The position numbers and the translations under genes were made by a program. From a virus: a stretch of DNA of 34,672 bases. The stretch lies in the IMG/VR virus record IMGVR_UViG_3300040801_005898; one strand, 5' to 3'. Positions 29,497-29,995 of the stretch are shown piece after piece (position 1 is the stretch's first letter; the number at the start of each line of letters is the position of its first letter). Under the pieces are notes generated by a model. That model worked only from the letters and a program-made list of their open reading frames with translations, did no database searches and was not told where the DNA came from.

Positions 29497-29961
29497 AAAA
29501 AAATAAATTGGCCCTGGCGGGCATTGTTATATAGTTGGGCCATTGTTAAGCCTAGCTAGGCGACCGGTCGTTTTAATGGCTTTTTGATAGACATTCTAAG
29601 GCCAATATCCGTGACTTTAGCTCTTCCTGGGCAGTCAACCCGCAACGTCTCCCAACGTTAGGTTTTTCAAATTCTGACTGTGCCGCAGCCATCCTTATTT
29701 GAAGTCGATCGTCCTTAAGCGATCGGCACCTTAAATCAAGGGGAGCTATTCCCAATTTCTCTTTGGAGTACCAGTTAAATCTACAGTAGTTCCTACGCCC
29801 TTAACTGTCGGCTAAAACGTTCGAGGCATTGGATTCCCCTTTCGACCGGCCAATTACGGTCTCGCTGTCGCCCGTCGTTGCCATAGGCTGTCGGTTTAGT
29901 GGCGGCTGTTACCAACCATTCCCAATATTGGCCCAAAGAATGCCGTTTAATATTGGGGCAT
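29497..29961 (-). ncRNA. Candidate large structured non-coding RNA of unknown class
   Basis: Own promoter, a ~18-bp long-range closing helix, many nested hairpins with GNRA loops, G-U pairs favouring the minus strand, and a terminal hairpin with U-tract. No credible ORF. Confidence 0.7.
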
Positions 29962-29967
29962 TTTTAA

Positions 29968-29995
29968 ATTGTACACGATTTTCGCAAAACAGCAA
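29968..29995 (-). promoter_or_regulatory. Sigma70-type promoter of the candidate ncRNA
   Basis: TTGCTG(29995-29990)-N16-TACAAT(29973-29968). Confidence 0.55.

Follow-up and report, generated by a model that had tools for sequence, protein, structure and literature searches.

A discrete and abundant RNA of ~450 nt is transcribed from a phage-like contig of cyanobacterial origin, with bounds fitting a minus-strand promoter and terminator, and residues 38–194 of this RNA are, as judged with covariance models, a diverged member of a structured module family that is absent from Rfam and that also occurs in ORF-less HEARO elements and ORF-less group II introns. The RNA gene lies in the window, by which we mean the whole stretch of 34,672 nucleotides analysed (IMG/VR record IMGVR_UViG_3300040801_005898), and it appears to form a transcription unit of its own, apart from the dnaN operon, on the evidence of the dnaN terminator and the zero depth between the two units. 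The explanation that we tentatively favour for the RNA as a whole is that of a stable, mobile-element-derived noncoding RNA (ncRNA) with a role in trans, exerted through a putative partner of the module. The features discussed below are collected in Table 1.

Table 1. Features of the RNA gene and its immediate surroundings (positions in the window).
Feature	Start	End	Strand	Basis or remark
Intrinsic terminator of upstream dnaN operon	30175	30197	-	9-bp stem + T run (terminator scan); RNA depth 0 at 30006–30172
Candidate promoter	29968	29995	-	TTGCTG (29995–29990), 16-nt spacer, TACAAT (29973–29968); start predicted at 29962–29958
Observed transcript body	29511	29948	-	Metatranscriptome contigs; full RNA predicted from ~29961 to ~29500
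Structured module (ORF-less HEARO 3′ extension / group II domain IV position)	29768	29924	-	R2, R3, intron HMM
Hairpin GGUUG-GUAA-CAGCC, module helix 1, GNRA loop	29904	29917	-	Ensemble probability 0.69; aligns to model hairpin ccugguaAcAgg
Module hairpin GACCG-UAAUUGGC-CGGUC, then GAAAG	29844	29861	-	Compensatory relative to host GUCCA-UAAUUGCC-UGGAC
Orphan 3′ region with locally stable hairpins and palindromes	29523	29767	-	Ensemble probabilities, palindrome excess
Terminator-like GCCC-GCCA-GGGC + U-rich tract	29497	29522	-	Ensemble probability 0.93–0.96
24-nt copy of host repeat-family terminus (AAAATTGGCGAAGGTATTTTTTGA)	29470	29493	-	Just 3′ of the RNA

The transcript, its setting and its coding potential

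The promoter-driven RNA of ~450 nt proposed in the original prediction was found as an abundant transcript in the metatranscriptomes of two studies. Two Logan contigs from the mat that probably yielded the phage genome match it without mismatch, namely X4 (438 nt, 29511–29948, depth 102.6) and X5 (410 nt, 29539–29948, depth 100.8), and a contig from the other study, X7, matches with 13 differences (376 nt, 29562–29937, depth 29.3). Depth in the metatranscriptomes was 0 at 27501–29003 and at 30006–30172 and only 2–8 over the phage dnaN and its neighbours, so that DNA carry-over does not account for the RNA signal. No contig covers the RNA in a DNA run (X6), which at a depth of only 2–3 is no evidence of absence.

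The promoter sequence is present as had been described; its −10 element agrees with the consensus at five of six positions and its −35 element at just three of six, which explains why the promoter scan passed it over, and the contigs of two runs begin at 29948, 10–14 nt downstream of the predicted start. At the opposite end, X4 stops at 29511, the final base of the terminator-like stem, and this stem forms with high ensemble probability (Table 1), both in favour of the terminator that had been proposed; it has only 4 base pairs, below the rule of the terminator scan, and hence went unflagged. The contig ends lie 8–14 nt inside both predicted ends, the contigs giving neither strand nor exact termini. 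Transcription from a promoter-like site on the plus strand would start near 29542, that is, 31 nt inside X4, and the minus strand therefore fits better. We infer the minus strand also from the positions of promoter and terminator, the purine skew, the GNRA loops and the orientation of the module; the predicted 5′ sequence of the RNA is AUGCCCC. The segment is richer in GC than its AT-rich flanks, as originally noted (0.46–0.50 versus 0.31–0.37), and the RNA strand is G-rich relative to C.

The window consists of HIP1-rich cyanobacterial DNA and makes up the final 34.6 kb of a 106.9-kb contig that is phage-like throughout (class II ribonucleotide reductase, DUF3854, tail protein, large orphan proteins). 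It encodes a major capsid protein, a cement protein, a portal, DUF2213 and tRNA-Met, together with a thymidylate kinase, a thymidylate-synthase-like protein, a UvrD-like helicase and the sliding clamp DnaN. The RNA gene is situated in the replication module, between dnaN, the helicase and the thymidylate genes, and a strong terminator separates it from the dnaN operon. On its 3′ side follow ORFs of 38–40 codons only and then a convergent 150-aa orphan; among the flanking genes used as anchors, P0003 is an orphan, and a 98-codon frame upstream is AT-rich nonsense. No convincing direct or inverted repeats marking an insertion flank the RNA, and no tRNA-like element was found, the tRNA gene of the window being 21 kb away.

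Such a position in the replication module, the GC-richer core between AT-rich flanks, the G-richness of the RNA strand and the presence of three perfect palindromes would all suit an origin-associated transcript, that is, an R-loop or primer RNA comparable to ColE1 RNA II and those of phage T4 origins, the palindromes then being sites at which proteins bind the DNA. This is very improbable in our judgement, inasmuch as a discrete, terminated and very abundant species is unlike primer RNAs, the locus shows no iterons, DnaA-box arrays or skew inflection, and the homology of the module points to an element that operates at the RNA level.

Several further observations concern the neighbourhood. 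The phage dnaN (30265–31425) encodes a full-length sliding clamp that is closest to host-type DnaN, with 82% identity to the host's own copy on contig C26 and 72–80% to the clamps of Okeania, Trichodesmium and Dapis, which suggests its recent capture from a related host. A 12-nt perfect complement exists between the 5′ end of the RNA (AUAUUAAACGGC, 29942–29953) and the 3′ untranslated region of dnaN (30230–30241), the chance expectation in such a 1.25-kb stretch being ~0.05; over the whole 107-kb contig, 13 perfect antisense matches of 12–14 nt were found versus ~6 expected, none of them long. The 9.4-kb replication module, including the RNA gene, is bounded by 75-nt inverted repeats (25059–25133 and 34551–34625), of which a third copy lies at bases 56–120 of the phage contig, and it is reversed in a contig from another run (L037, in which 1–7339 corresponds to window 17769–25133 and 7264–10613 to window 34626 back to 31277). 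These repeats had been taken for hammerheads; an Rfam search at E ≤ 1 finds none. The short host repeat whose terminus stands beside the RNA is represented by TGGCGAAGGTATT, which occurs 124 times in the host genome versus once on the phage contig, the host copies often being inverted pairs that adjoin GAAACCCGGTTT hairpins; the solo terminus would add to the picture of traffic with the host.

The RNA is apparently non-coding, as had been proposed: a coding signal, including a conserved ORF, was looked for and is absent. None of the nine candidate ORFs or frames of the region occurs among ~15 billion predicted proteins, phmmer against 1.8 billion representatives returned repetitive artefacts only and no protein homologue, Pfam gave no match in the region, and gene callers left the region empty on every one of at least seven contigs. 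Abundant short prophage transcripts often encode small proteins, and two AUG-initiated ORFs, of 39 codons (29692–29576) and of 27 codons (29884–29804), do lie inside the transcript, so that the RNA might be the mRNA of one or both. We regard this as improbable for either ORF, because in the longer one AAGG abuts the AUG, an unusable Shine–Dalgarno spacing, and the shorter one has no Shine–Dalgarno sequence before its AUG and falls inside the structured module; neither of them was called on the contigs just mentioned or has a protein homologue.

A module shared with HEARO elements and group II introns

The host genome harbours at least 16 copies of HEARO (RF02033), the guide RNA of IscB (11 above the Rfam cut-off and 16 at E ≤ 1e-6), and the phage contig harbours none; a genome-wide search for the family yielded 19 sites, again none on the phage contig. 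The host copies are of two kinds, being either followed by an IscB ORF or ORF-less with a length of 455–482 nt, and the ORF-less copies consist of HEARO and a conserved ~250-nt 3′ extension ending in a T run. A profile HMM of this extension alone gave E 0.03–0.07 on the phage RNA together with an equal-scoring decoy, and covariance models then separated the two. Model R2, built from the extension in five host copies, matches 29887–29792 on the minus strand with 19.5 bits (E 9.9e-5; next in the window, 9.6 bits), and model R3, built from 33 sequences of other genomes, scores 29924–29768 over its full length (1–148) with 33.2 bits (E 1.2e-6; runner-up in the window, 13.2 bits), these E-values being rough owing to a shortened calibration. 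The comparison with the module was chosen after a weak similarity had been noticed, the candidate RNA having been left out of both models. An HMM of two ORF-less introns, likewise made without the RNA, independently aligns the segment at their domain IV position to the RNA, and this is the closest sequence similarity that the RNA has (CGAACGNUUU..., E 1.2e-5); another similarity to the intron, not collinear with the first (E 0.028), was put down to chance.

When the 7-Mb genome was searched with R2, only three places were found beyond the training copies, namely the phage RNA and two sites (19.5 and 21.2 bits) located ~40 nt upstream of group II domains V/VI in ORF-less introns of ~840 nt, one in the host (C241) and one on the phage contig itself. 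The non-training sites at ~20 bits being adjacent to domains V/VI, R2 finds true relatives at that score. The family of ~150-nt modules extends over 67 of the 144 genomes of the host's family, and of 20 loci inspected for context, eight follow directly after HEARO, four precede domain V and the rest do neither; six loci in other genomes have neither HEARO nor domain V when judged at the Rfam gathering score and with R1, a HEARO model made from 12 copies. In the phage RNA, likewise, neither HEARO upstream nor domain V downstream of the module was found.

The module is a real covarying RNA structure. Across 29 sequences, 88% of the cells in its helices are paired versus 35–46% in slid controls, double changes occur in 28 of the 33 pairs, and the covariation score is 0.586 versus at most 0.10 in the controls, which provide a fair comparison because the alignment was fitted to the model. 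The helix of the hairpin at 29844–29861 is paired in 98.6% of cells, with double changes in all five pairs. In the R2 alignment, CCU/AGG closes the domain in the phage copy; in the R3 alignment, its closing stem and last hairpin are imperfect, and its score of 33 bits compares with 83–141 bits for the other members of the family.

The original prediction that the RNA belongs to no recognisable class thus stands as regards Rfam, where nothing matches at the gathering score over the whole window or at E ≤ 10 over 29300–30200, but not as regards residues 38–194. In these searches the models of GOLLD, ROOL, OLE, raiA, RNase P, tmRNA, 6S RNA and group I introns gave no match, in line with the absence of group I intron, RNase P, tmRNA and 6S signatures noted at the outset, and only chance matches to miRNA, snoRNA and sRNA models were obtained. 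The parallel statement that there is no group II signature is right for domains V/VI and misses the module at the domain IV position.

The RNA resembles the ORF-less HEARO elements in the ~150-nt module, in its length (~450 nt versus 455–482 nt), in lacking an ORF and in ending in a T run. It differs from them in that the HEARO scaffold is missing, only 37 nt, in place of 225 nt, precede the module, the final 270 nt are unrelated, and the RNA is single-copy, phage-borne and equipped with its own promoter. Membership in HEARO itself was rejected, RF02033 giving no match at E ≤ 10 and R1, with filters off, no minus-strand match in 29497–29961 at E ≤ 10. No IscB (RuvC+HNH) ORF lies directly downstream of the RNA, and a decayed gene was dismissed as well, since tblastn with host IscB proteins found no match and phmmer artefacts only. 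Meers et al. (PMC10055086) remark of RF02033 only that additional structural elements are missing from it. With the ORF-less group II introns the RNA shares the module, which in the introns lies ~40 nt before domain V, in the place of domain IV. It is nevertheless neither an intron nor a ribozyme candidate, as it has no domains V/VI, no GUGYG 5′ end (GUGCG on the host copy of the intron) and no domains I–III; RF00029 has no match in the window, and its 12 matches in the genome include position 26709 of the phage contig C3 and not the RNA locus.

Some side observations bear on the mobile elements themselves. The intron on C3 (~840 nt, ORF-less, ending at 26788; L119, ~884–1722) shows 84% identity to the host copy on C241, which has the 5′ sequence GUGCG, and its domains V/VI score 47 bits; the segment at its domain IV position is the module also present in the phage RNA. 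On host contig C96 (10751–12415), HEARO is followed by a 445-aa IscB ORF and then, 16 nt past the stop codon, by group II domains V/VI, an arrangement that suggests physical nesting or fusion of HEARO-IscB units with group II introns in the host lineage. In genomes of genus g5, the module and a short tail (GCCGUCCUAAAAGGACGG GGUUUCAAACCC ... UGAUG) stop exactly at the ATG of unrelated host genes, encoding an ABC ATPase, ExbD-like, MnmA-like and secreted proteins (L124, L126, L130, L133, L136, L137, L148 and others), as though the element either integrated at start-codon regions or provided them.

Global fold and 3′ region

According to the original prediction, the RNA would represent a new class of large structured ncRNA akin to GOLLD and ROOL, with a core of ~350 nt closed by an 18-bp helix (29943–29924 with 29609–29591). 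Every motif that it named was found in its place, all 14 helices that it drew are base-complementary and can form, two of the hairpins are GNRA-capped, and the core (29591–29943) has a minimum free energy (MFE) z-score of −2.2. The 5′/3′ duplex energy and the three perfect palindromes of at least 10 nt were matched by only 16 and 14 of 1000 shuffles, respectively, although both signals are strand-symmetric and modest. GOLLD and ROOL are phage-associated and form homo-oligomers, according to a preprint (bioRxiv 10.1101/2024.12.08.627333). With these large phage-borne ncRNAs the analogy is one of size and phage location only; the RNA studied here matches neither of their Rfam models, is smaller and has no conserved family-wide architecture.

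Most of what was drawn as a highly structured, closed fold is not supported. The MFE of the whole RNA is no better than that of shuffles (z −1.10 and −1.30), the fold as drawn is less favourable than the MFE structure by 12.5 kcal/mol, and the closing helix, which has no comparative backing, reaches an ensemble probability of only 0.16 and rests on the palindrome CCAAUAUUGG, able to pair with any copy of itself. Ensemble probabilities exceed 0.6 for five of the 14 helices (H2, H4, H8, H10 and the terminator) and are 0.03 or less for H3, H5, H6 and H7a. Whereas H2 (GGUUG-GUAA-CAGCC) is the first hairpin of the module, H3 and H4 employ the bases of the comparatively supported hairpin GACCG-UAAUUGGC-CGGUC and are hence incompatible with it. 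The argument that mismatches readable as G-U pairs mark this strand is circular and does not discriminate, given that the opposite strand folds better (core z −3.8). Outside the module there is, furthermore, no homologue from which covariation could be drawn, and we think a new class with the proposed closed architecture improbable.

The 3′ region contains two hairpins that are locally stable, CGAUCG..CGAUCG at 29725–29706 and AACGUU-GGGA-GACGUU at 29659–29644 (ensemble probabilities 0.94–1.0 and 0.73–0.82), and the palindromes CGACCGGUCG (29570–29561) and GCCUAGCUAGGC (29561–29550). The 3′ ~270 nt have no homologue in any collection searched, and nothing therefore supports structure or function there. 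For the RNA as a whole, blastn gave no match in INPHARED phages, PLSDB plasmids, 61 relatives or 401 genomes of the order, nhmmer none in its own genome or in 37 loci of distant helicase relatives, and pseudo-frame scans none in JGI metagenome contigs, IMG/VR or GTDB genomes, the only whole-length matches being near-identical phage copies. Among these copies, the 1167-nt intergenic stretch contains two single-nucleotide polymorphisms, one at 29666 in an unpaired stretch of the RNA and one at 29124 outside it; the RNA is 100% identical in five contigs from different samples, and the structural genes of one variant differ by 1.6%.

Origin and possible function

The most likely ancestor of the RNA is a mobile element of the HEARO type that had inserted behind the phage dnaN. 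Two closer relatives of the phage helicase were found, with 64% and 68% identity, the best relatives in GTDB genomes being only ~40% identical. The 64% lineage keeps the order helicase, 168-aa ORF and dnaN, and in two of its loci (L086/L087) a HEARO match of 136 bits occurs 196 nt after dnaN, within the 485 nt downstream, at the very locus that the RNA gene occupies here; the contig ends inside the hairpin of the module. From 13 nt after the dnaN stop codon onward these loci diverge from a third (L088), the former continuing with ~200 nt and then HEARO, the latter with a terminator followed by AT-rich DNA up to a TATAAT, shortly after which the contig breaks off. What lies downstream of the phage dnaN accordingly differs among relatives, and the locus is able to accommodate a HEARO element. 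The region that precedes HEARO in L084 shows three short collinear matches, each with E 4.2, the level expected by chance.

The simplest history would be the capture, and then the decay, of a HEARO-type element at a dnaN-downstream hotspot, in the course of which the HEARO scaffold was lost and the RNA came under a promoter of its own; this origin from HEARO or an intron is inferred from one shared module and from synteny at 64% helicase identity. In the reading that we tentatively favour, the RNA would act in trans via a putative module-recognising partner of the host elements, either as a decoy or as a hitch-hiker. Counted against it are the phage copy's score far below those of the other module members and its poorly aligned terminal helices, as well as the lack of the HEARO scaffold, of domains V/VI and of a 3′ homologue, and the presence of the 39- and 27-codon ORFs.

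An alternative would be a transcribed relic, namely a decaying HEARO-type element or ORF-less intron remnant that happens to lie behind a strong promoter and whose abundance merely reflects that promoter and stable hairpins, with no function. The phage module copy is the most diverged of its family, with degraded terminal helices, the scaffold and domains V/VI are missing, a solo host-repeat terminus adjoins the RNA, the locus varies among relatives, and no homologue exists outside near-identical phage copies. Phage genomes are, on the other hand, under pressure to shed useless DNA. A functionless relic is in our view unlikely, and a trans-acting RNA is preferred to it because of the depth of ~100 against 2–8 for the neighbouring phage genes, with the RNA present in two independent studies, the clean unit of promoter and terminator, and the invariance across samples.

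We further speculate, with little confidence in this particular form of the trans-acting role, that the RNA has been exapted as a decoy that displays the module at ~100-fold depth and so titrates a protein recognising it, such as an IscB-family nuclease or an intron maturase/reverse transcriptase, which would protect the DNA of the phage against cutting guided by RNA or against invasion by introns. A separate function would be contributed by the orphan 3′ domain, whose palindromes might allow self-assembly.

ncRNAs longer than 400 nt are rare in bacteria and phages, and the present one, verified as very abundant in natural mats from two studies, is new to Rfam and to the literature searched. 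One third of it can nevertheless be assigned to a family that is definable and associated with mobile elements already known, and the RNA is for this reason not a categorically new class. By connecting a phage RNA gene with the ORF-less forms of HEARO elements and of group II introns, the module brings together three things usually treated separately, and its distribution in the host's family makes it worth describing as an RNA family. Should it serve as a platform for protein binding, the copy in the phage could represent an RNA-based means of interfering with host mobile elements or with RNA-guided nucleases; should the RNA be a relic, it would document the capture and expression of mobile-element RNAs by a phage.
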